DNA from: Planctomycetota bacterium
GTDB lineage: Bacteria; Planctomycetota; PLA2; JAEUHO01
Reading direction: 5' to 3'
DNA: 64,000 nucleotides
NCBI GenBank assembly: GCA_965223505.1
Contig: CBDCWP010000038.1
Coordinates: forward strand, 160,001-224,000
The notes under the pieces were generated by a model that was not told the DNA's origin, did not search any database, and saw nothing but the letters and a program-made list of their open reading frames with translations. Positions 51,249 through 64,000 of this stretch are shown in pieces. A program made the position numbers and the translations under genes. How positions within the stretch are numbered: position 1 is the stretch's first letter; every line of letters begins with the position of its first letter.

Positions 51249-52040
51249 CTACATGTCGTGGGTCCGGCCCCTTCGCGCAGCCCGCTTGAAGCGATTCGCG
51301 TCGACGCCGAGCGTCCGCAGCTTCTTGTGGAAGTTCGGCCGGCTGATGCCGGCCAGGCGCGCCGACGCCGCGACGTTGCCGCCCGTGCGCGCGAGCAGAT
51401 CCTCCACGTAGCGGATCTCGAACTTGCGCTGTGCCTCGCGCAGCGGCATCGGCGGCTTCGCGGTGCCGTTGGCCTCGCGCAACCGGATCTCCGCTTCGTG
51501 TTTCTGAATCTCGGCGGTCGTCGAACCGAACGAGGTCAGCTCGCCGGTGTCCAGTGGATCGCGGCGCGCCTCGAGTTGCTCCTCGACCGCCTGATAGCCG
51601 TCCGGCGAGAGTCGACGCTCGACCAGCGCCCGCAAACGCCTGTTTTCCCGCGATAGGCGCTCTTCGTCGACGGCACGCTGAATCACGCGCACGACCTCGT
51701 CGACGGAGAACGGCTTCTGGACGTAGTCCTTTGCGCCGCGGCGCATGGCTTCGAGCGCCATCTCGACGGTGCCGTAGCCGGTCATGACGACGACCGGGAT
51801 GCGCGCGTCCATCTCGGTGAGAATCGCGACGATGTCGAGTCCCGAGAGGTCCGGAAGCTTGACGTCCGTGAGCACGGCGTCGAAGCGCCCCTCGACGAAG
51901 CGATCCACGCCGTCTTTGCCGGTCGCGGCCTCCGTGCTCGTGAATCCTGCGCGCTGGAACCCCTTGGCCAACGCGTGCCGCATGGACTCTTCGTCGTCGA
52001 TCACCAGAACGTGGGGCGGGGTCGAGCTGGGCGCGTTCAT
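51249..52040 (-). CDS. Response regulator, REC plus Fis-type HTH, no sigma54 AAA+ domain
   Basis: VIDDE, TDVKLPD.SGL, DYVQKPF; GGNVAASARLAGISR. Confidence 0.9.
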   Translation of the reverse strand: MNAPSSTPPHVLVIDDEESMRHALAKGFQRAGFTSTEAATGKDGVDRFVEGRFDAVLTDVKLPDLSGLDIVAILTEMDARIPVVVMTGYGTVEMALEAMRRGAKDYVQKPFSVDEVVRVIQRAVDEERLSRENRRLRALVERRLSPDGYQAVEEQLEARRDPLDTGELTSFGSTTAEIQKHEAEIRLREANGTAKPPMPLREAQRKFEIRYVEDLLARTGGNVAASARLAGISRPNFHKKLRTLGVDANRFKRAARRGRTHDM

Positions 52041-52147
52041 GCCATGGGCCAAGCAACCCCTGGACCGTTCTGGGCACGATGCCCGACGCAAGCGTCGGCG
52101 CGACCGCCGTCGGTCCGTCACCCCTCGAGGACGGAGGCGTTACGCCC

Positions 52148-53623
52148 TCAGGCCTTGGGCAGCGACACGGAGAAGCGCGCCCCGCCCCCCGGCGCCTCGC
52201 CGACCTCGATCCGGCCCCCGTGCCGCTCGATGATGCCGTAGGAGATGAACAGCCCGAGTCCCGTCCCTCCCTCGCGCGCGGTGAAGAAGGGCTCGAAGAT
52301 GCGCGTGCGATCGGCCTCGGGGACCCCCGGTCCCTCGTCGCAAACCTCGATGACGGCGGCGCCGTCCGCCGTGCCGGTCGTGACCGTCACGCGATCGCCT
52401 TCGTCGCTGGCGTGAATCGCGTTCGTCACGAGATTGAGCACGACTTGATGCAACTGTCCGTCGTCGCCGAGCACCTCGGGCGCGTCGCCGTCGTGCGCCT
52501 CGAGCGTGACGCGCGACTGCCTCGCGCTCGGCTCCGCGGTGCGTAGGACGTCGGCGACGACGCGCCCGAGGGAGACGGGCGCGAGCTTGCGCGACGGCGG
52601 TCGCGCCACGTCGAGCAGCGCGCGCACGAGCACCGCGGCGCGATCGGCGGTGCGCTTGGCCATGTCGATGTCTTCGAGAACGGCCTCGTTGGTCGTGGCC
52701 GAGCGCACGCTCTCGAGGCATCCGAGGATGCCGCCGATCAGGTTGTTGAACTCGTGCGCGACGCCGCCCGCCAGCGTGCCGAGGCCGGCCATCTTCTCCG
52801 TCTGCACCAGACGGTCCTGGGTCGCGCGCAGCTCCTCGAGTGCTTGCGTGCGCTCTTCGAGCGTCGCTTCGAGGGTCTCGGTCTTGCGACGCACCTCGTC
52901 CTCCAGCCCTTCGGTCGCGACGCGAATCTGGTCGCGCATGCGCTCGACGTCGCCCGCCAGTCCCACGAGCTCGATCGCGCCGCCGCGCGCCTGGGGAACG
53001 GGGGTCGAGAGATCGCCCTCGGCGATCCGGTTGACCGCCGAGCGCAGACGTCGCACGGGGCCCACGACGAGCACGACCAGCGTGAGCGCCAGGAGCACCG
53101 CCATGCCGAGCAGGAGCATCCCGAAACGCATGCTGAGCTTGTCGGCGCGCGCGGACGACGCGCGCTCCGCGCGAACGGCGGCCTCCGCGCGAAGCTCGCT
53201 CATGCGTGCCTCGATGCGCGCGTCGCTCTGCACGCCCATGCGGTCCGCGAGCACGTCGATGCGCCGAAGCTCGTCGCGGCTGCGCCGGCGCGCACCGCTG
53301 ACGAGCGCTCGCTTGAGCGCCTCGACATCGACACGCTCGGGATCCGCGGCGTCGCGATAGAGCGAGAACGGCTCCTGCTCGATCCACTGCCGCGAGCGGG
53401 TCTCGGCGCCCTCGACCAACCCGTGGGCGGTGTCCTGGGAGAGCTTCACCAACGCGGCGGCCAGCTCCTTGAGCGCGGCCTCCGAACGCTGTTGCTCCGC
53501 GGCCGCATCCTCGCGCGCCGCGTCGAGATCCTCCGACGTGATCCACGCCAACACGCCCGCTCCGCCGGCCAGCACGACGCCCCCCACCAGCACGAGCGTC
53601 CAGATGACGAGCGAAACCCTCAA
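52148..53623 (-). CDS. Sensor histidine kinase (2 TM, HAMP, HisKA, HATPase)
   Basis: GVAHEFNN, NLVTNA, DEGPG, FEPFFT, GTGLGL. Confidence 0.93.
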   Translation of the reverse strand: MRVSLVIWTLVLVGGVVLAGGAGVLAWITSEDLDAAREDAAAEQQRSEAALKELAAALVKLSQDTAHGLVEGAETRSRQWIEQEPFSLYRDAADPERVDVEALKRALVSGARRRSRDELRRIDVLADRMGVQSDARIEARMSELRAEAAVRAERASSARADKLSMRFGMLLLGMAVLLALTLVVLVVGPVRRLRSAVNRIAEGDLSTPVPQARGGAIELVGLAGDVERMRDQIRVATEGLEDEVRRKTETLEATLEERTQALEELRATQDRLVQTEKMAGLGTLAGGVAHEFNNLIGGILGCLESVRSATTNEAVLEDIDMAKRTADRAAVLVRALLDVARPPSRKLAPVSLGRVVADVLRTAEPSARQSRVTLEAHDGDAPEVLGDDGQLHQVVLNLVTNAIHASDEGDRVTVTTGTADGAAVIEVCDEGPGVPEADRTRIFEPFFTAREGGTGLGLFISYGIIERHGGRIEVGEAPGGGARFSVSLPKA

Positions 53624-54573
53624 CCGTCGCCCCGCTTCTTCACCGGCTCGAGCTCGTACGCCGATGCCAGGAACGGCATCGGCAGCTGCAGCCCCTGCCG
53701 CTCGGCCGCGTTCAGATCGACGAAGACGCGGACGCTCTTGACTGGTCGCGCGGGCAACGACTTGGAACGGTCGCGGTCGAGGCGGCGCGCGAGCTCGGAC
53801 GCCGTTCGCCCGACGATGCCGTGGTGGCCGGCCAGCACGACCACGGCCCGGCCCTTGCGGAACTGCAACGGATCGTCGCAGACCAGCGGCACCTTCTTGC
53901 GTCGCGCGAGCTCGAACGCCTCGCGGAAGGAGAGCAGCTTCGCGTCGGACGCGAGCCGCAGGTGCAGCACCGCGCCGGGTTGCGCGTCCTCGTCGTGCGT
54001 CGCCCAGGCGAACCCGCCCGCTTCGGCGAACGCGTCGAAACGACCCGTCTCGTCCTCGGTCGCAAGGCGCACGTGCGGCGTCTCGGTCGCGAGCATGCGC
54101 CGCAGAATCTCGCCGAGACGCTCCGCGCGCAGCTCCGCGTAGACGATCGCGTGCAGCCCATCGACCTTCGGCAGGGGATCGAGTGGCTCGCCGTCCACGG
54201 TGTAGCGTGAGGTCACGAAGACGCGCGGAACGCTCGGCGCGATCTTGCGCATGCGCTCGCAGGCTCTGTCACCGAGCGCGAACGCCAACGGGCCGCGCGG
54301 CATGCGCACCGTCGGCGCGCGCGCCTGCGCCCGCAACTTGCGTCCGAACGCCTCGAAGCCGGCGGGTGTGTCTTCGATGGTCTCGCGGCACACGCGCGGG
54401 AGCTTCGCCAGCTCGAGCCCCTTGCGAATGTGGTCGTAGACGTGAAGCAACCGCGCGTCGTCGCGTTCGAGCACGGCGGCGGGAATGTCGCAGGCCGGCA
54501 ACTCCTCTTCTTCGGCCGACGCGTGCACTCCGAGCGGCAACAGCAAGAGGAGAACGAACGAGAGGCGGCGCAT
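53620..54573 (-). CDS. Secreted protein with ABC substrate-binding-like C-terminus
   Basis: Signal peptide; C-terminal FVDLNAAERQGLQLPMPFLASA; overlaps the kinase start. Confidence 0.55.
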   Translation of the reverse strand: MRRLSFVLLLLLPLGVHASAEEEELPACDIPAAVLERDDARLLHVYDHIRKGLELAKLPRVCRETIEDTPAGFEAFGRKLRAQARAPTVRMPRGPLAFALGDRACERMRKIAPSVPRVFVTSRYTVDGEPLDPLPKVDGLHAIVYAELRAERLGEILRRMLATETPHVRLATEDETGRFDAFAEAGGFAWATHDEDAQPGAVLHLRLASDAKLLSFREAFELARRKKVPLVCDDPLQFRKGRAVVVLAGHHGIVGRTASELARRLDRDRSKSLPARPVKSVRVFVDLNAAERQGLQLPMPFLASAYELEPVKKRGDG

Positions 54574-54581
54574 TGCCGCGA

Positions 54582-55601
54582 TTATGCCTCTCCTGTCGCG
54601 AATACGTCGAGTTCGAAGGAAGAACGCTCCCCGGCTTCGAGAAGCTGCGCCCCGCGAAGCGCGATCATCGCTCCGTTGTCGGCACACAGCGCGGTCGACG
54701 GGAAACGGATGCGGAGTCCGTCGGGCGCACGTTCGTGCAAGAGACGACGCAGCTCGCGATTGGCCGCGACGCCCCCACCGACGACGAGATCGCGTACACC
54801 TTCCTGCTCGGCGGCGAGCAGGGAGCGCTCGATGAGCACGTCCACGACCGCGCGTTCGAAGGACGCCGCGACGTCGGCGTGGGACACTTCGAGATCGGAT
54901 CGGTCAGGCGCGCCGCGCTTGCCGCCGGGGCCCTTCAAGTAGTACAGCACCGCGGTCTTCAGCCCGGAGAACGAGAACGCGAGCGGGTCGTGCTTCACCT
55001 TCGAGCGGGGGAAGCGCACCGCCTTCGGGTCGCCCTCCATAGCGAGCTTGCTGACGGACGGACCGCCGGGCTGCGGCAGTCCGAGCAGCACGGCGACCTT
55101 GTCGAAGCACTCGCCGGCGGCGTCGTCGATGGTCGAGCCGAGCCGCTCGATTCGGCCGGGCGCTCGGCACGCGTAGATGGCGGTGTGGCCGCCCGACGCG
55201 ACGAGCGCGGTGAACGGGAACTCGAGATCGGCGTGCTCGGCCTGCGCCGCCACGCAGTGGGCTTCGATGTGATGCACGCCCACGAGCGGGAGGTCACGCG
55301 CGAGACAGAGCGACTTGGCGGCGGCGACGCCCACCATGAGCGAGCCGACGAGCCCGGGGCGGTTGGTGACCGCGACGGCATCGAGGTCGTCGAGCGCGAT
55401 GCCGGCGGCCTCGAGCGCGCGCTCCACGACGCGCGTGACACGTTCGGTGTGCGCGCGGCTGGCGATCTCGGGCACGACGCCGCCGAAGTCGGCGTGCAGC
55501 TCGTATTGGGTGGCGACCTCGTTGCTCAGCACCTCACGCGGCGCGCGCAGCACGGCGGCGGCGGTGTCGTCGCAGGAGGTGTCGATGCCGAGGATGAGCA
55601 C
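54582..55601 (-). CDS. tsaD: tRNA N6-adenosine threonylcarbamoyltransferase
   Basis: LGIDTSCDDT, GGVVPEIASRAH, HHIEAH, SGGHT, DNGAMIA. Confidence 0.96.
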   Translation of the reverse strand: MLILGIDTSCDDTAAAVLRAPREVLSNEVATQYELHADFGGVVPEIASRAHTERVTRVVERALEAAGIALDDLDAVAVTNRPGLVGSLMVGVAAAKSLCLARDLPLVGVHHIEAHCVAAQAEHADLEFPFTALVASGGHTAIYACRAPGRIERLGSTIDDAAGECFDKVAVLLGLPQPGGPSVSKLAMEGDPKAVRFPRSKVKHDPLAFSFSGLKTAVLYYLKGPGGKRGAPDRSDLEVSHADVAASFERAVVDVLIERSLLAAEQEGVRDLVVGGGVAANRELRRLLHERAPDGLRIRFPSTALCADNGAMIALRGAQLLEAGERSSFELDVFATGEA

Positions 55602-55770: not shown

Positions 55771-57105
55771 CTACCCCTTCTTCGGCTTGCCGCGGTTGAT
55801 GTTCCGAAGCGCCACGTCACCCGACAAGAGATCGACCGCGCGCTGCAGCTGCGGGTCGACGTAGTCCGCCGCGACCTCGGGGAACCGCGTCTCCTGACCC
55901 CAAACGGCCTCTTCCTGGTTCACGAAGAATTGGCCGAGCATCTCGTTCTGCTTCGCCGTCAACGGAATGATCACGTCCGGGAACAACCCCGCCGGATCGC
56001 CGTTGTTGCCGCCGGAGCTCTGGTAGGAGCGACCCGACGGCGTGTAGTAGCGCGACGTCGTCAGCTTGATCGCCGCGCGCGTACCGGGGATCTCGCTGAT
56101 CTGCTGCACGAGGAACTTGCCGTAGGTGCGCGTGCCCACCAAGAGCGCGCGCCGGTGATCCTGCAGCGCCCCGGCGACGATCTCGCTCGCGCTCGCGCTG
56201 TAGCCGTTCACGAGCACGACCAGCGGCAGATCGGGGACGTCGTTGGCGTCCTTGGACGCCGAGTGCTGCTTGTTGGAGTCGCGGGCGCGCCCCTCCATGC
56301 GGACGAGCACGCCTTGCCGCAGGAAGCGGTCGGCGATTTTCAAGGCGACGTTCAGCACGCCGCCACCGTTGTGACGCAGGTCCAACACCAGGCCCTCGAT
56401 GCCGTCCTCCATCATCGACTCGACGGCGCGTCCGAAGTCGTCGACCGTCTCTTCCGCAAAGTCGGTGAGCCGCACGACGCCGAACTGTCCGTGGTCGCCG
56501 ACGCGGCGCACGTAGACCGTCGGCGGACGGATGACGCCGCGCACGACGGCCAGCTCGGTGACGGGGTTCGTGGAGGGCCCGTCCTCGGGGCGCGGTCCCT
56601 TCCGGTAGGCGATGCGCACGGTGGAGTTCGGCTCGCCCTTGAGCAGGTCGGTCACCTGGTCGAGGTCGATGCCGCCAAGAGGCACGTCGCCCGCGCGAAC
56701 GATGGTGTCGCCGACGGTCAGACCGGCGACGGCGGCGGGGCCTCCGGGCAGGACGCCGACGATCATGAGTCCCTCGTCGACCTGCTCGATCTTGATGCCG
56801 AGACCGGCGTACTTGCCTTCGATGCCTTCGCGCCACTCTTGTTGTTCGCTCGGAGGAATGAAACCGCTGTAGGGATCGAGCTCGAGGTAGGCGTCCATGG
56901 CGCGATAGAACGCCTCACGCTCTTGTTCGGAGGACAGCTCGTCCACGTAGGTCGCCGCCACCTTGCTGCGCACGTAGCCGGCGATCTCCTCGTTCCAGTA
57001 GACGCCTTCGGCGTCGGCGGCGCCGGCGCCGCGATCCACGAGCAGGAAGGCGATGGTCAGCGACGCGAGGACGCTGGCGCAGATGAGGAGCGTTCCGGGT
57101 TTCAT
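55771..57105 (-). CDS. ctpA: S41 family C-terminal processing peptidase
   Basis: LDPYS, PDZ, DLRHNGGG, SASASEIVAGALQD, TYGK. Confidence 0.92.
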   Translation of the reverse strand: MKPGTLLICASVLASLTIAFLLVDRGAGAADAEGVYWNEEIAGYVRSKVAATYVDELSSEQEREAFYRAMDAYLELDPYSGFIPPSEQQEWREGIEGKYAGLGIKIEQVDEGLMIVGVLPGGPAAVAGLTVGDTIVRAGDVPLGGIDLDQVTDLLKGEPNSTVRIAYRKGPRPEDGPSTNPVTELAVVRGVIRPPTVYVRRVGDHGQFGVVRLTDFAEETVDDFGRAVESMMEDGIEGLVLDLRHNGGGVLNVALKIADRFLRQGVLVRMEGRARDSNKQHSASKDANDVPDLPLVVLVNGYSASASEIVAGALQDHRRALLVGTRTYGKFLVQQISEIPGTRAAIKLTTSRYYTPSGRSYQSSGGNNGDPAGLFPDVIIPLTAKQNEMLGQFFVNQEEAVWGQETRFPEVAADYVDPQLQRAVDLLSGDVALRNINRGKPKKG

Positions 57106-57267: not shown

Positions 57268-58398
57268 TCAATCGAAGTCGCCGCGGCCGAACTCGACGGG
57301 ATGATCCGCGCCGACGTTCAGCACCAGGCCCAGGCCGACGAAGGACGTCAGCAGGCTCGAGCCGCCGTAGGACAGGAACGGAAGCGGCATCCCCACGATC
57401 GGAAACAACCCCAATGTCATCCCCACGTTGATCAATGCCTGGCACCCGAAGAGCGTCGCGACGCCGATCGCGAGCAGCCGTCCACTCGGCTCGCGAACGC
57501 GCAAGGCGGTGCGCAACAACAACAGGATCAACAACGCGTAGATCGCGAAGAGCGCCGCGGTCCCGGTGAGACCGAACGCAGCGACGAACACCGGGAAGAT
57601 GAAGTCGGAGTGCCGCTCCGGCAGGAAGCGCACGGCTTGGTGCGTCTCTTCACCGAGCCCCGATCCGGTGAGGCTCGCCGCGCCGACCACCGTCTTGCTG
57701 TGGTGGATGTGATGTCCCTGCTTCTGCAGCAACGCCTTGTCCGCGCTCTGCTGCAACAGATACGCATGGATGCGGTTCTTCTGGTACGGCTTCAAGATGC
57801 CGGGGACGAAGTACATGGCGACGGCCGCGACGAGACCGGCGCCCGCGACGATCGCCAGATGACGGCGCCGCGCGCCCGCGACGAACAGCAGCACGAAGAG
57901 AATCGGAATCAGCAAGAGCGCCGTCCCGAGATCGGGCTGCAGCATGATCAGCATGAGCGGCAGGAACGTGAGCGCGAACGGGACGAACAGCCCCGTGAAG
58001 CGCCGGTAGCTCGACTGGTATCGAATGAAGCCGGCGAGCGTGATGACCATCACGACCTTCATGATCTCGCTCGGCTGCATGCGGAAAGAGCCGAGCTGGA
58101 TCCAACGCTTCGCGCTGCGGCCGCTGCCGGCCACGAGCACGGCCAACAGCAAGAGGATCCCGACGCCGTAGATGACGTAGCGCCACTCAACGACGCGGCG
58201 ATACGGCACCGCCAGCATCAGCAGGCACAGCACGACACCGATGACCGTCCAGCGCAGCTGGAGCCAGCCGTAGTCGACGGCCTTGCCCTGCGACGCCGCC
58301 TGCACGGTGAACACACCGATGAACGCGAGCAGCACGCCGAGCGCGAGCAGGAGCCAGTTGGCCTGCTTCAGCCGGTCACCGAGCGTGAGCTGACGCAC
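57268..58398 (-). CDS. rodA: Rod shape-determining SEDS protein
   Basis: AKRWI, QPSE, QPDLGT, PERHSDFIF, LPFLSYGGSS; follows PBP2. Confidence 0.93.
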   Translation of the reverse strand: MRQLTLGDRLKQANWLLLALGVLLAFIGVFTVQAASQGKAVDYGWLQLRWTVIGVVLCLLMLAVPYRRVVEWRYVIYGVGILLLLAVLVAGSGRSAKRWIQLGSFRMQPSEIMKVVMVITLAGFIRYQSSYRRFTGLFVPFALTFLPLMLIMLQPDLGTALLLIPILFVLLFVAGARRRHLAIVAGAGLVAAVAMYFVPGILKPYQKNRIHAYLLQQSADKALLQKQGHHIHHSKTVVGAASLTGSGLGEETHQAVRFLPERHSDFIFPVFVAAFGLTGTAALFAIYALLILLLLRTALRVREPSGRLLAIGVATLFGCQALINVGMTLGLFPIVGMPLPFLSYGGSSLLTSFVGLGLVLNVGADHPVEFGRGDFD

Positions 58399-58413: not shown

Positions 58414-61008
58414 TCATCGCCCGTACCAGTACGAGAGGATCTCGGCGACGGCGGGGACGGCGGTCTGGCCGGCGGCCGCCTCCGTTCGCGCGTGCAGGAC
58501 GCAGGCGAACGCGATCGGATTCGCGCCGCCGCCCTCGGCGAACCCGACGAACCAGTGGTGCCACGCTTCGTCCTCGTCGCCCCGCGGGCGCCAGGGGCGC
58601 CAGGTGCCGCCGACCTGGGCGGTCCCCGTCTTGCCGTAGACCCGCGCGTTCACCCCGCTCCAGTCGGCCCCGTCGGCGGTTCCGGCCCGCACGGCCAGCC
58701 GCATGCCGTCGTGAATGGGCTTCAGGTGCGAGGGACTGAGCCGCAGGTCGTGCTGGGCCCAACGGGGGGCGCCGCCGTCCACCGACATCAGGGCGTGCGG
58801 CGTGACGACGATGCCGCCGTTGGCGATCGCCGCGATCGCGCGCGCCATCTGGAGCGGCGTCGCCAGCACCGGCCCCTGACCGATCGCGACGTTGCGCCGG
58901 TCGTCGTGGCGAATGACTTTCTTGTCGTCGGTGCTGGTCCGGCCGATCTTCCGGTCGAACCGTGCGGTGAACCAGATGTGGCCGCCGCGCGCGAGCTCAC
59001 CCTCCACGCCGAACTGCCCGCCCAGCGCGGTGACGCGCCGCACGGCCTTGCGCAGCGTGTAGGGCAGGGCGGCGTACGGCGCCTTGTCGTAGCGAAGCGG
59101 CAGGCGCTGCAGCGCGTCGGCGCCGGAGAGCGCGTGCACCTCGAAGCGCAGATCGACGTACTGACCTTCGACCAGCTCGCGGGTCACGCGGACGTTGACC
59201 TGGCGCGTGCCGGTCTCGCGATGGATCTGCTGGGCGACGTCAGCGAGGGTGCGTCCCAGGACGCGCGGGTCGCCGCCGACCGTCGATGGCACGTTGCGCG
59301 CGCTGCCGACGACGATCTTCGGCGGCTTGATGCCGCGCCGCTCGAGCAGCTCGGATGCGACCGCGCCGACGCGCTCGACCGGGAAGTCGATCCAGTCGTG
59401 CAGCCACAGTCCGCGGCTCCACCCGGGCACTTCGTCGCCGGGCCGGTGCCCGATGCCCAGGCGTGACGCGAAGTCCGCTACGTAGTGCCGGTACGTGCCC
59501 CACGTCTCGTACTCGCCGAGCCCCCAGGCAAAGTAGCGGTTGCAGGAACGCGCGATCGCGCCCACCAGATCGACCGAACCGCATCCATGGCACCCCGGCG
59601 TACCGGCCGCTCCACGGCGACAAAAGTACGTGCCGATCGGGAGCGGCTCCCCGCTCGACAGCATGCCCAATCCCACGATGACCTTGAACGTGCTCCCCGG
59701 CTCCACCGGCACCTGCGCAACGCGGCTCAACCCGACGGAAACGGGCTGCGCGACGAACGCCCGCCAGGCCGACATGTCCACGCCGGGCGGCAGGTCCCCG
59801 CGCGGTGCCCACGTGCGTTCGTCTTGATCGGCAACCGCTTGCGTGAAGGCGGGCTGGTAGAGCTTGCCGAGGTCCGTGTTCGGATCGAATCGCGGCATCT
59901 CCGCCCACATCAGGATCTCGCCCGTCACCACGTCGATCGCGACGAACGCACCGGACGGGCGGCCCTTGGGGTAGTAGCCCTCGCGCGAGCCGTGCCGTTC
60001 GATGGCCTGTTCCGCGACCCGGCTCGCGTCGAGCGAGATCGAGAGACGCACCTCGAGCCCGCGCTCGGGCGGCGCCTTGTCCACGACGCGCGTGAACCAG
60101 CCGTCGCTGTCGAGCTCCAGCACCTGATGGCCGGGATAGCCGCTCAGCAACCCGTTGTAGGCGCGCTCGAGGCCGGCGCGTCCGACGCGCGTGGTCGGCG
60201 TGATCTGGCCCGGGAACCGCTCGGACAGCTGCTCGAACTCCTCCTTGTCGCGAACGACGCTGGCGTGACCGAGGAGCTGCGGCGCGAAATCGCCCTGGGG
60301 ATAGTGCCGGCGAAGCGCAGCTTGGATGCGGAACCCGCGGTAGCGTCCCACCTCGTCGAGCTCGACGAGGTGAACGACCTCGTCGCTGACGGGGCTCTCG
60401 ACGACGTAGGGCCGCCGGAGCAGGTCTTCCCGTCGCAGCTCGCGCTTGTCCTGCAGCAGGAACTCGTCGACGCCGCGCTGCGCTTCCTCCGCGACGTACG
60501 CATCGACGATCTCGTCGATCTCCTGCAGCCGCTTGCGCGCGCGCTTGTCGAGCTCGCCGGGCGGCACGCCCAGCGCCTTCTCCAGCGGCGCGAGATCGCC
60601 GAACGGCAACGGCTCGAGGGTCGCCCCGGCAACGGCCGCCCCCGCGAATCCGTCGACGCTGCGGCGCGCCGCGCGCACACACTCGCAGTCCGTACGCCGC
60701 CTCTTCTCGACGTGGTGAAAGTGGACGCTGCCGCAGGCGGTGCAGCGAACGCGGGCGCGGTGCAGCCAGTCCCAGCCGACGAAGCTGAGCTGGTGCACCG
60801 GGATGTCCTCGGCGAGGACAGCGCCGGTGCGATCCGTGATCTCGCCGCGCGGCGCCTCGAGCTTCTCCCACCGGCGCCGCATGTCGCGCGCCTCCTCGCG
60901 CCACGTCGCGCCGTCCACGACGAGCAGCTGGCCCGCGCGCAGCCAGACGGCGCCGAGCCCGAAGCAGAAGGCGAGGTAGAGGATGACGAGCTTACGCCGG
61001 TAGCGCAT
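58414..61008 (-). CDS. mrdA: Penicillin-binding protein 2 with unusual insertions
   Basis: APRGEITDR, RHYPQG, GRAGLE, PGSTFK, SCN, AIGQG, TPLQMA, KTGTAQ. Confidence 0.9.
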   Translation of the reverse strand: MRYRRKLVILYLAFCFGLGAVWLRAGQLLVVDGATWREEARDMRRRWEKLEAPRGEITDRTGAVLAEDIPVHQLSFVGWDWLHRARVRCTACGSVHFHHVEKRRRTDCECVRAARRSVDGFAGAAVAGATLEPLPFGDLAPLEKALGVPPGELDKRARKRLQEIDEIVDAYVAEEAQRGVDEFLLQDKRELRREDLLRRPYVVESPVSDEVVHLVELDEVGRYRGFRIQAALRRHYPQGDFAPQLLGHASVVRDKEEFEQLSERFPGQITPTTRVGRAGLERAYNGLLSGYPGHQVLELDSDGWFTRVVDKAPPERGLEVRLSISLDASRVAEQAIERHGSREGYYPKGRPSGAFVAIDVVTGEILMWAEMPRFDPNTDLGKLYQPAFTQAVADQDERTWAPRGDLPPGVDMSAWRAFVAQPVSVGLSRVAQVPVEPGSTFKVIVGLGMLSSGEPLPIGTYFCRRGAAGTPGCHGCGSVDLVGAIARSCNRYFAWGLGEYETWGTYRHYVADFASRLGIGHRPGDEVPGWSRGLWLHDWIDFPVERVGAVASELLERRGIKPPKIVVGSARNVPSTVGGDPRVLGRTLADVAQQIHRETGTRQVNVRVTRELVEGQYVDLRFEVHALSGADALQRLPLRYDKAPYAALPYTLRKAVRRVTALGGQFGVEGELARGGHIWFTARFDRKIGRTSTDDKKVIRHDDRRNVAIGQGPVLATPLQMARAIAAIANGGIVVTPHALMSVDGGAPRWAQHDLRLSPSHLKPIHDGMRLAVRAGTADGADWSGVNARVYGKTGTAQVGGTWRPWRPRGDEDEAWHHWFVGFAEGGGANPIAFACVLHARTEAAAGQTAVPAVAEILSYWYGR

Positions 61009-61507
61009 GGCCGCCCCCCCGCCCGCAGACGTCGTCGAGCAGGCGATACCGGTCGATCAGCGCGAAGAGGCCGATCGAGAGCAGCGTCGTCCAGAGCGCG
61101 ACGGGGAACGGCTCGAGGAACGCGCCCCACGTGACGCCGCTGTCGCCGAACGGCAGGATGCGCAGCAGATACAGCCACCCGGCGATCACGGTCGCAAGGG
61201 CGGTCAGCAGCACGCGTGACGCGCCCTCCATGCGCCCGCGGTGGGTGCGGCCTTCGGCGAAGAAGAACGCGACGCACCCCAGCACGAAGCCGTGCGTCCC
61301 GAGGGGATCCAGCGAGAGGGAGTCACGCACGAGACCGATGCCGATCCCCCACGGGACCGCGTGGTACCCGCGCGAACGAAACGCGATGTAGAGAGTCGTG
61401 AGCAGCCAGAGATCCGGCGCGAAACGGTGCAGCGACAGGGCGGTGGGCATGAGGTCCGGCAGGAAGCCGGCGAGCAACATCAGAACGAAGAGGACGAGCA
61501 ACCCCAA
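60992..61507 (-). CDS. mreD: Rod shape-determining protein MreD
   Basis: PDL, GLVRDSLS..PLG; position between mreC and mrdA. Confidence 0.82.
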   Translation of the reverse strand: MGLLVLFVLMLLAGFLPDLMPTALSLHRFAPDLWLLTTLYIAFRSRGYHAVPWGIGIGLVRDSLSLDPLGTHGFVLGCVAFFFAEGRTHRGRMEGASRVLLTALATVIAGWLYLLRILPFGDSGVTWGAFLEPFPVALWTTLLSIGLFALIDRYRLLDDVCGRGGGHALPA

Positions 61508-61571: not shown

Positions 61572-62399
61572 TCAGCGCTTCGACGCGTCCTCAGTATCGG
61601 ACGGCAGGAGGACGACCACCTCGACCGAGCGGTCGAGGTCGAACGCGGGCCGCACGTACAGCGTCGGCATGCGATCGAGGTCCGGATCGGTGCTCTGGGA
61701 GATCGTCCCGACGAGCAGGTTGGCGGGCACCCGCTCGTCGAAGTTCGAGGTGAACACGGCCGCCCCGACGGGAACGCTTCCCGCCCCGCGCGGCGTGCGG
61801 ACGAACTTCAGGATCAGCTGGTCTTCGCCGTCCCGCACGCCGGAGCGACGCGCGAACCCACGCAGCAAGACCTCCTTGTCGGTGCGTACGAAGACGCCCA
61901 GCCGCGAGCTCGGGTCGGTCGCGAGCTGCACGATCGAGGTCGTCGAGCGCACCTTGCGAACGCGTCCCAGGTAGACCCGCCCCATCACCACGGCATGCCC
62001 GACGCGCACGCCGTCTTCCGCGCCACGGCTGATGAGAATCGAACGCCGCCGCGGCGCCGGATCGTGCGCGCGCAGCACGCGCGCAACCAAGGCGCGCGGG
62101 CGCCGGCCTAGCTGGTCGTCAGCCAGCACGCCTTTCAGCGACTCCATCCCGCGCACGCGCTGCACGAACTGCATGTGACGCTCCCACACGTCATGCAGCT
62201 CACGTTCGAGTTCGCGCGTTCGCGTGGAGTCGCCGTCGCCCCCCTGCCTGCCCGACGGGGTGGGGATGTAACCGGCGGCGCCGTCGAAGACGCCGGAGAC
62301 CGGCGACTCGAGCGCGGGGACGCCGTCAGGCTTCAGCACCGGCAGCGCGAACAGGGCGATGAGCACCGCTCCCCATGCGTGCTGCTTGCGAAAGCGCAT
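61572..62399 (-). CDS. mreC: Rod shape-determining protein MreC
   Basis: ISRGAEDGV, LGRV, VQLATDP, VFTS..VP..LLVG, VRPAFD. Confidence 0.85.
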   Translation of the reverse strand: MRFRKQHAWGAVLIALFALPVLKPDGVPALESPVSGVFDGAAGYIPTPSGRQGGDGDSTRTRELERELHDVWERHMQFVQRVRGMESLKGVLADDQLGRRPRALVARVLRAHDPAPRRRSILISRGAEDGVRVGHAVVMGRVYLGRVRKVRSTTSIVQLATDPSSRLGVFVRTDKEVLLRGFARRSGVRDGEDQLILKFVRTPRGAGSVPVGAAVFTSNFDERVPANLLVGTISQSTDPDLDRMPTLYVRPAFDLDRSVEVVVLLPSDTEDASKR

Positions 62400-62588: not shown

Positions 62589-63641
62589 TCACTCCTCGGC
62601 CTGGTCCAGTGCGACGTGCAGGTCGCGGATCTTCTCGAGGAAGACGCCCGTCCCGCGCGCGACGGCCGTCAACGGATCTTCGGACACGCGCACCGGAAGG
62701 TTGATCTCTTCGGTGATGACGCGATCGAGCCCGCGCAAGAGCGCGCCGCCGCCCGCCATCACCACGCCGCTGTCGACGAGGTCCGCCGCCAGCTCGGGCG
62801 GTGTGCCCTCGAGCGTCGCCTTGACGGTCTCGACGATGCCCCGCACCGGTTCCTGCAGCGCTTCGCGGATCTCTTCGCTCGTCACGACGACCTTGCGTGG
62901 CAGGCCCTGCTTGAGGTCGCGGCCCTTGACGTCCATCGTCATCTCGCGCTTGAGAGGATACGCGCTGCCGATGCCGATCTTGATCTTCTCGGCCGTCTGC
63001 TCGCCGATGAGCAGATTGTAGGTGTTGCGCATGTAGTCGACGATGGCGGTGTCCATCGCGTCGCCGGCGACGCGCATCGAATGCGCCGTCACGATGCCGG
63101 CGAGCGAGATCACCGCCACCTCGGTCGTGCCGCCGCCGATGTCCACGATCATGGAGGCCTGCGGCTCGGTGATCGGCAGGCCGACGCCGATGCCGGCGGC
63201 CATGGGCTCTTCGATCAGGTAGACCTTGCGCGCGCCGGCGCGCTCCGCGGAGTTGATCACGGCGCGCTTCTCGACGGGCGTGATGCCGTACGGAATGGCG
63301 ATCACGACGCGCGGATGCACGGCCCAGGTGCGATCGTGCACCTTGTAGATGAAGTATCGGAGCATCGCCTCGGTGATCTCGAAGTCGGCGATGACGCCGT
63401 CCTTGAGCGGGCGGATCGCGACGATGTTGCCTGGCGTCTTGCCGAGCATCTCCTTCGCGGTGTCACCGACGGCGCGGCCTTCGAGGAGCACCTTGTTGGT
63501 GCCCTTCTTGACGGCGACGACGCTCGGTTCGTTGAGGATGATCCCGCGTCCCTGGACGCAGACCAGCGTGTTGGCGGTACCCAGGTCGATCCCCATGTCG
63601 ATGGAGAACTTCCCGATCAGGTATTCGAAGACCTTGGCCAT
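62589..63641 (-). CDS. mreB: Rod shape-determining actin MreB
   Basis: [36 protein letters not shown]. Confidence 0.97.
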
Positions 63642-64000
63642 GGGCGGACCGGTATCCCTTCTGGTGACGTGACCAAGCACCCCGGACGCGAATCGACCGA
63701 AGCCAAACGCGGCCGGAGCACTCACTCCGGGGGCGGGGCGAGGAACGCCGTCCCCGTCGTCGAAGTATGTACACCATCGAGGGGACGCACACGGGAGCCC
63801 GCAAGCTAGGAGGTCGGCTGCGCTGGGGGCGGGCTGAAGTCGGGAAAACCCGGCTGGGCCGGCGTCCTGGTGTCGTGCACGATCCCCCTCGTTCCAGAGT
63901 TGAGCGTCTCACCCCACAGGCACCTGCGTGTCGTGCCCGAGACCGTTCTCGTGCTCGTTCCCGCGGTCACCCTCGACCGTGACGGATGCCTGCTTGCCGG

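Follow-up and report, generated by a model that had tools for sequence, protein, structure and literature searches.

The stretch of DNA analyzed here (the window) comprises 64,000 nucleotides of contig CBDCWP010000038.1 (assembly GCA_965223505.1, positions 160,001 to 224,000 of the forward strand) from a Planctomycetota bacterium. On its reverse strand, a pbp2 (mrdA-like) gene encodes a class B penicillin-binding protein (PBP) of 864 amino acids (aa). The Transpeptidase domain of this protein is interrupted by an additional domain of about 150 residues. By sequence comparison and predicted fold, the additional domain is a degenerate homologue of the CA domain, which is the ATP-binding domain of histidine kinases. 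In the rod-shape machinery, cross-linking is carried out by PBP2, which is essential and serves as a drug target.

The Window Encodes an Enlarged PBP2 in an mre-rodA Operon

The 864-aa open reading frame (ORF) was analyzed with Pfam. PBP_dimer (PF03717) was detected with 72.5 bits and E 7.5e-20 (cut-off 24.4), and Transpeptidase (PF00905) with 118.5 bits and E 4.3e-34 (cut-off 22.1). The Transpeptidase match was split into two stretches, the second of which covers residues 707-858. The precomputed annotation of the protein contains two PBP families only. A full-length AlphaFold model based on 30 sequences (pLDDT 90.1, pTM 0.86) was closest to PBP2 structures, with 6pl5_B at E 3.7e-30 and E. 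coli 6g9f at a TMt of 0.76.

The genes are arranged in the order mreB-mreC-mreD-pbp2-rodA, followed by a protease of the S41/PDZ type. The other class B PBP of the genome has 621 aa and one unbroken Transpeptidase match, carries no insert, and adjoins mraW. Therefore, it was assigned to FtsI. Since the only other class B PBP is FtsI and the gene lies in the mre-rodA operon, the 864-aa protein was assigned to the elongasome PBP2. Thus, by all features tested, this protein is PBP2/MrdA, and it is the sole PBP2 of the genome.

A first-pass annotation, made from the letters of the sequence alone, had described the SxxK, SxN and KTG motifs as intact. In an alignment of 30 sequences, the first two motifs were invariant and the third was at least 90% conserved. 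From the conservation of the catalytic motifs, the position in the mre-rodA operon and the assignment of the only other class B PBP to FtsI, we infer that the host enzyme must work. In the Kyte-Doolittle analysis with 19-residue windows, values above 1.6 were obtained only at the N-terminal anchor (residues ~5-31), and the maximum elsewhere was 1.49. Since the protein possesses a single N-terminal anchor and no other hydrophobic segment, the rest of PBP2, including the insert, should be located in the periplasm, as is the rest of other PBP2s.

Position and Boundaries of the Insert

The first-pass annotation had placed an insert of about 147 aa between SCN and AIGQG/KTG, where PBP2 normally has a short loop. 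Its coordinates, 58951-59391 on the reverse strand, correspond to residues 540-686 of the 864-aa ORF. When the protein was compared with T. thermophilus PBP2 (chain 6pl5_B), residues 528 to 705 corresponded to residues 402 to 428 of that chain, with about 150 residues extra. We then aligned 33 PBP2s from the same order. At the insertion site, 16 insert-bearing proteins have 148-172 residues, whereas the 11 insert-less proteins of the same family have 1-9 and the six order-level outgroups 6-7. The native flanks (G.WL..W before the site and P.I.PDDGRNVAIGQG after it) are recognisable in both insert-bearing and insert-less PBP2s. From the comparison with insert-less relatives, the boundaries are set at about D541 and R690, nearly those proposed at first, and the short loop of the insert-less relatives agrees with the earlier description. 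Three residues of the insert (D541, G579 and R690) are invariant among the insert-bearing proteins, and two others (F542 and G689) are nearly so; four of the five lie at the two junctions. The insert occupies a loop on the surface of the Transpeptidase domain that follows the SxN region and precedes the IGQG helix. Its G+C content (0.71-0.73) is equal to that of the flanks.

Canonical PBP2/MrdA proteins (E. coli 6g9f, T. thermophilus 6pl5 and that of A. baumannii) have in common with the protein in the window the anchor, the pedestal, the transpeptidase fold and the catalytic motifs, and their genes likewise share an operon with rodA and mreBCD. However, the solved PBP2/MrdA chains that were matched possess 561-646 aa, in contrast to 864 aa here, and both the 150-aa inserted domain and a module with four cysteines in the pedestal are extra. 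The coordinates of the features are listed in Table 1.

Table 1. Positions of pbp2, its parts and the adjacent genes in the window
Feature	Positions	Strand	Basis and remarks
mreB	62589..63725	-	Pfam MreB_Mbl 5.3e-143
mreC	61572..62399	-	Pfam MreC 2.2e-25
mreD	60992..61507	-	Pfam MreD 6.2e-9
pbp2 (mrdA-like) gene	58414..61008	-	864 aa + stop; class B PBP of the elongasome; ORF, Pfam, full-length model
N-terminal membrane anchor, residues ~5-31	60916..60996	-	Hydropathy; sole membrane segment
SxxK active-site motif, S439-T-F-K442	59683..59694	-	S439 and K442 invariant in 30/30 aligned sequences
SxN motif, S488-C489-N490	59539..59547	-	Invariant in 30/30 aligned sequences
Inserted pseudo-CA (degenerate HATPase_c / Bergerat-fold) domain, residues ~541-690	58939..59388	-	Boundaries from insert-less relatives; homology to kinase CA domains; predicted fold; ATP motifs lost
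ATP-lid remnant (predicted), residues ~630-649	59062..59121	-	Shortened, poorly predicted; low pLDDT at 630-639; low blocks at 101-120 of the insert-only model
KTG(T) motif, K793-T796	58621..58632	-	At least 90% conserved; contig end cuts one sequence
rodA (SEDS glycosyltransferase)	57268..58398	-	Directly downstream of pbp2; Pfam FTSW_RODA_SPOVE 1.1e-79

The Insert Is Related to the CA Domain of Hybrid Histidine Kinases

When a database of 5.8 billion proteins was searched with the insert alone, six hybrid histidine kinases and no other PBP were obtained (best E 3.5e-5). The best single-sequence kinase match showed 30% identity across 89% of the insert query. The BLASTP alignment (163 columns, 30% identity, E 2e-13) covered HATPase_c and the end of HisKA before it. 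A profile of 12 PBP2 inserts was compared with solved structures, and GacS (7z8n) was matched at E 3.3e-5 and RetS at E 0.004. A profile of 16 inserts gave 12,969 matches at E <=1e-3 among 1.84 billion protein representatives. The best 33 of these matches consisted of 16 insert-bearing PBPs and 17 HisKA/HATPase_c kinases, and 16 of the 17 kinases carry a receiver domain. Among the weaker matches in genomes of the family, all five that were examined were hybrid kinases. The ESM Atlas gave values of 0.91-0.92 to clusters of the GHKL/HATPase_c type, together with unnamed clusters; this agrees with a kinase-type domain, although by the calibration of the tool it is only a lead.

Pfam HATPase_c (PF02518) was not matched up to E 10, either in the 864-aa protein or in the 12 inserts scanned. 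Since HATPase_c missed all 12 inserts, the domain is considered to be strongly degenerate. In addition, no HisKA/DHp domain was detected by Pfam in the 864-aa protein. Two other Pfam signals were taken as chance. TGS remained below its threshold on the insert (E 0.016-0.09, 13-16 bits, cut-off 22.2), and wHTH-HSP90_Na-assoc was matched in one of the 12 inserts at E 0.0042.

By both sequence and fold, the best match was the CA domain of the GacS/BarA-type kinases (P. aeruginosa GacS, 7z8n). The two domains correspond along their entire length, beginning with the first strand (DF..L) and ending with the WF..RF strand, and the secondary structure elements are in the same order. The resemblance to a kinase domain reported in the first-pass annotation was thus recovered in single-sequence, profile and BLASTP comparisons with hybrid kinases. 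On these sequence comparisons, the insert is homologous to the CA domain of GacS/BarA-type hybrid histidine kinases.

The Bergerat Fold Is Retained in the Predicted Structures

A model of the insert alone was built with AlphaFold2 from an alignment of 16 PBP2 sequences that contained no kinases (pLDDT 86.0, pTM 0.82). The order of strands and helices in the model was that of a CA domain. In Foldseek, the top matches were kinase CA domains (RetS 3.8e-9, ETR1 5.5e-9 and GacS 5.8e-9), and at least 338 matches were obtained at E <=1e-3. The model was also compared by VIA, which is independent of Foldseek. GacS was aligned over 153 residues (Z 15.5, root-mean-square deviation 3.6), and 52 chains were detected at Z >=8; the best 50 of the 52 were all histidine-kinase regions or kinases of the PDK/BCK type. 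RetS (6dk7/6dk8) and DivL (4q20) were among the best structural matches. In the full-length model, the elements of the insert were unchanged, and within the insert only residues 630-639, in the former ATP lid, were poorly predicted (pLDDT <50). A Bergerat fold had been anticipated in the first-pass annotation, and the top matches of the model in both Foldseek and VIA were in line with it. As modelled, therefore, the insert keeps the Bergerat alpha/beta-sandwich fold.

The Insert Is Not a Product of Misassembly

Since misassembly of the segment had been named as a possible source of error, we analyzed the integrity of the locus. The same architecture is present in 16 separately assembled genomes, without stops and at 41-52% full-length identity. 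Furthermore, one Logan contig covers the whole gene and another covers both junctions, with 0 differences (two runs). These runs may correspond to the source sample and therefore show continuity, not an independent observation. In Logan run X3, an apparent joint skipping 1235 bases was judged to be spurious, with only 21 letters on one side. Many pieces of 21-25 letters in the Logan runs were assigned to other organisms. Among the sequencing runs listed as containing the sequence, none is of RNA. The reading frame is preserved across both junctions. These results show that the insert is not a misassembly.

More broadly, the segment might be an artefact of any kind, namely a misassembled PBP-kinase chimera, a pseudogene or a chance resemblance. 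The silence of Pfam HATPase_c even at E <=10 would fit such an explanation. However, the recurrence of the in-frame architecture in diverged genomes, the Logan contigs without differences, the G+C content shared with the flanks, and profile and fold statistics far above chance all argue against it, and we consider an artefact very unlikely indeed.

Residues for ATP Binding Are Lost in the Inserts

To compare the motifs, 31 distinct inserts were aligned with 13 kinase CA domains. The Asn of the N box, which is a ligand of Mg-ATP, and the Asp of G1 (DxGxG), which contacts adenine, were present in all 13 kinases and in none of the 31 inserts. The last Gly of G1 was kept in two inserts. The core of the F box was a gap in 31/31 inserts and the Gly-Gly of G2 in 30/31, whereas both are present in the kinases. 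The lid of the inserts is about 17 residues shorter than that of the kinases. The residues common to inserts and kinases are structural: the first strand, the G-D-P..R-L helix cap, the LRF strand and the terminal WF..RF strand. Thus, the loss of the N box, G1 and G2, originally read from one sequence, extends to the alignment of 31 inserts.

The insert also differs from a GacS-type CA domain in its setting. The CA domain of GacS is part of a cytoplasmic transmitter, whereas the insert has no HisKA/DHp partner, is embedded in a periplasmic enzyme and falls below the Pfam HATPase_c threshold. From the residues that are missing, the insert is predicted to be ATP-blind, that is, unable to bind ATP as kinases do. 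Since it is a HATPase_c homologue that lacks the defining functional features, the best name for it is pseudo-CA domain. Moreover, since the single N-terminal anchor would place the insert in the periplasm, where it would be without ATP, no kinase action is expected.

The former nucleotide pocket might instead bind a small molecule of the periplasm, for example a muropeptide or another metabolite, and act as a sensor coupled to cross-linking. The helices and the sheet that form the pocket are retained in the model, and the larger clade of inserts possesses its own conserved W..LP / LP pattern at the former lid. However, the pocket-lining positions of the N box, G1 and G2 are variable across the inserts, and no new residues have been fixed there. 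In addition, the lid is shortened and poorly ordered. A sensor of this kind therefore seems improbable to us.

Distribution and Evolution of the Insert

The first-pass annotation had proposed a search for relatives with the same insert. The architecture was found in 16 of 29 genomes of one uncultured Planctomycetota family, in nine genera and without stops. When 401 genomes of the phylum were sampled, strong matches were detected only in this family (10 of the 16 sampled genomes and, in addition, the genome of the window), and the insert was found in 0 of 384 genomes of other families. Further insert-bearing PBPs, with the insert retained, were present among metagenome representatives.

A maximum-likelihood tree of PBP2 was calculated after removal of the insert columns (33 rows, 689 columns). 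On this tree, a single change of state is sufficient. The insert-bearing proteins fall into two clades of 12 and 4 rows, with a support of 99 each, and these two clades and one insert-less clade of four constitute an unresolved three-way split. The tree is compatible with one gain alone or with one gain and a later loss. The insert-less clade (L013-L016, from genomes G013, G018, G023 and G005) possesses nine residues including a Trp at the insertion site, whereas the other insert-less proteins possess one. The site in this clade may represent either the state before insertion or the scar of a deletion. In one of its genomes (G005, contig C36), PBP2 is encoded in two frames, L016 and L046, with residues 1-229 and 275-864, which points to a frameshift or to an error in the sequence.

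Two kinases of the same genome were compared with the insert as donors. The histidine kinase at 52148-53623 on the reverse strand, about 5 kb downstream, showed no similarity (E 0.49). The genome's own hybrid kinase was weakly similar (25% identity, E 0.005) and was rejected as a recent donor. Thus, no recent donor was found in the comparison with these two kinases.

Other Features of PBP2 and Its Surroundings

Cysteine residues in the transpeptidase domain: In the alignment of 30 sequences, C463, C473 and C489, the last of which is the middle residue of S-C-N, are invariant (59539-59622, reverse strand). H474 is nearly invariant in 12 insert-bearing proteins, and C476 is present in the PBP2 of the window. 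Residues 468-472 have low pLDDT. According to one report (PMC9974482), the middle Cys of SxN and residues of a beta-hairpin bind Zn in A. baumannii PBP2. By analogy, C463/C473/H474/C476/C489 resemble that site as it is described there, in what may be a Cys/His-rich version.

Cysteine residues in the pedestal: A second lineage-specific addition is located at residues ~85-135 of PBP2 (60604-60756, reverse strand), in the pedestal, where C89, C92, C108 and C110 are nearly invariant. In the 30-sequence alignment and the model, these residues form a CxxC...CxC arrangement with short strands, which is zinc-ribbon-like and is shared by family members with and without the insert. Between residues 87 and 227, the protein is longer than T. 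thermophilus PBP2 by about 100 residues.

Neighboring genes: A C-terminal processing peptidase of the S41 type, which also has a PDZ domain, is encoded at 55771-57105, directly downstream of rodA and on the same (reverse) strand. Between this peptidase and the kinase, a 355-aa ORF (53620-54687, reverse strand) gave no Pfam match at E <=1e-5. A response regulator with a Fis-type helix-turn-helix (51249-52121, reverse strand) lies beside the HAMP-HisKA-HATPase_c kinase (52148-53623, reverse strand), about 5 kb downstream of pbp2.

Possible Role of the Pseudo-CA Domain

We propose the following explanation. An ancestor of one clade of the family gained one complete CA domain from a GacS/BarA-type hybrid histidine kinase, and the domain was placed in frame in the surface loop of the Transpeptidase domain. 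It keeps its fold but no longer has the ligands for Mg and ATP (the Asn of the N box, the Asp of G1, the F box and G2), while the catalytic motifs of the host were kept. Up to this point the explanation rests directly on the data, as does the likely location in the periplasm, whereas the role is inferred. An interaction or regulatory module had already been proposed in the first-pass annotation. In our view, the pseudo-CA domain would now act as a docking platform rigidly attached to the transpeptidase domain. By binding a partner in the periplasm or on the outer-membrane side, or else the wall, the platform may position the cross-linking carried out by the RodA-PBP2 elongasome or regulate it. 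Overall, capture of a CA domain with a docking or regulatory role is the best explanation, and we regard it as probable, though by a modest measure. As to the role itself, a docking or regulatory platform is, on the analogies given below, the single most likely one, and our confidence in it falls just short of even.

Known proteins provide models for such a role. RetS and DivL contain degenerate kinase modules that act by binding and not by autophosphorylation. However, these proteins are cytoplasmic, keep their DHp domain and belong to two-component pathways, whereas the insert is a lone CA domain in a wall synthase. Among the class A PBPs of E. coli, the ODD domain of PBP1A binds LpoA and the UB2H domain of PBP1B binds LpoB. 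As in our case, a non-catalytic domain is grafted on a peptidoglycan synthase, near or within the transpeptidase region, and ODD and UB2H may therefore serve as functional models for the insert. They have other folds and no homology to it, they occur in class A and not in class B enzymes, and their partners are known. The insert being intact across nine genera, its length of 148-172 aa, the conserved junction residues and a host enzyme that must work are all in favor of a function.

Several results weigh against this explanation. The docking role is argued from analogy and from the retention of the domain. Few positions of the insert are invariant, and most of the conserved ones are structural and the same as in kinases. 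Thus, no new functional surface is evident. Furthermore, 13 of the 29 genomes of the family have no insert-bearing PBP2, and an insert-less gene was seen in 11 of these 13. Thus, the insert is dispensable for PBP2 function in the lineage as a whole. In the same pairs of proteins, amino-acid identity was 35-62% in the insert and 58-79% in the core. The ratio of nonsynonymous to synonymous substitution rates (dN/dS; NG86 method) in the two closest pairs was about 0.49 for the insert and 0.14 and 0.32 for the core; in more distant pairs, it reached 0.7-1.2 for the insert. Since dS was 0.5-1.1 in a genome of 70% GC, and thus near saturation, these ratios were used only qualitatively. On this evidence, the insert is the fastest-evolving part of PBP2.

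These observations lead to the main rival explanation, in which the insert is a tolerated passenger or a steric spacer. A self-folding domain, captured once, would have persisted since clean deletion is rare, and would provide passive bulk, shielding or spacing without a specific partner. Being the least constrained part of the protein (dN/dS 0.49-1.2, in contrast to 0.14-0.42 in the core) and having few invariant residues, the insert behaves as expected of a passenger. In addition, the PBP2s of the insert-less relatives are otherwise similar, and the remnant of the lid differs between the two insert-bearing clades. However, neither stops nor large deletions were found in any of the 16 insert-bearing genomes, which represent nine genera, or in the metagenome representatives. 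The fold is also confidently predicted from diverged inserts alone, the closest pairs have dN/dS values below 1, and there is conservation at the junctions. We therefore hold a mere passenger or spacer to be possible but rather doubtful.

With the docking platform as the preferred role, a more specific proposal can be made, which we put forward only tentatively. The pseudo-CA domain might be the first known extracytoplasmic module with a GHKL fold. Attached to a class B PBP, it would serve in the periplasm as the receptor for a lineage-specific regulator or a wall-derived ligand and would gate cross-linking by the elongasome. Control of the Lpo type would then have an equivalent among class B PBPs, one that arose independently in Planctomycetota.

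Significance of the Insert

The first-pass annotation knew of no PBP with this architecture. Within the full-text literature searched, which did not cover subscription-only papers, no description of a kinase-like domain in a PBP was found, and the statement holds to that extent. That a wall synthase has recruited a cytoplasmic signalling fold into its catalytic domain, in the periplasm, should come as a surprise to specialists. This case shows that the ATP-binding domain of a cytoplasmic kinase can be exported and retained after the loss of its nucleotide ligands. It is also an example of a domain grafted by nature within the transpeptidase domain, where a loop accommodates a folded insert of 150 residues in an enzyme that must stay functional. 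To our knowledge, the regulation of class B PBPs from the periplasmic side is largely an open subject. If a partner exists, the insert would be a clear added example for the biology of pseudo-kinase domains.

For now, the finding is confined to uncultured organisms. The wall biology of Planctomycetota is unusual and has been little studied. In the uncultured family examined here, the insert is a clean marker of one clade, and, if the pseudo-CA domain has a partner, it would represent a new control of wall growth in Planctomycetota.

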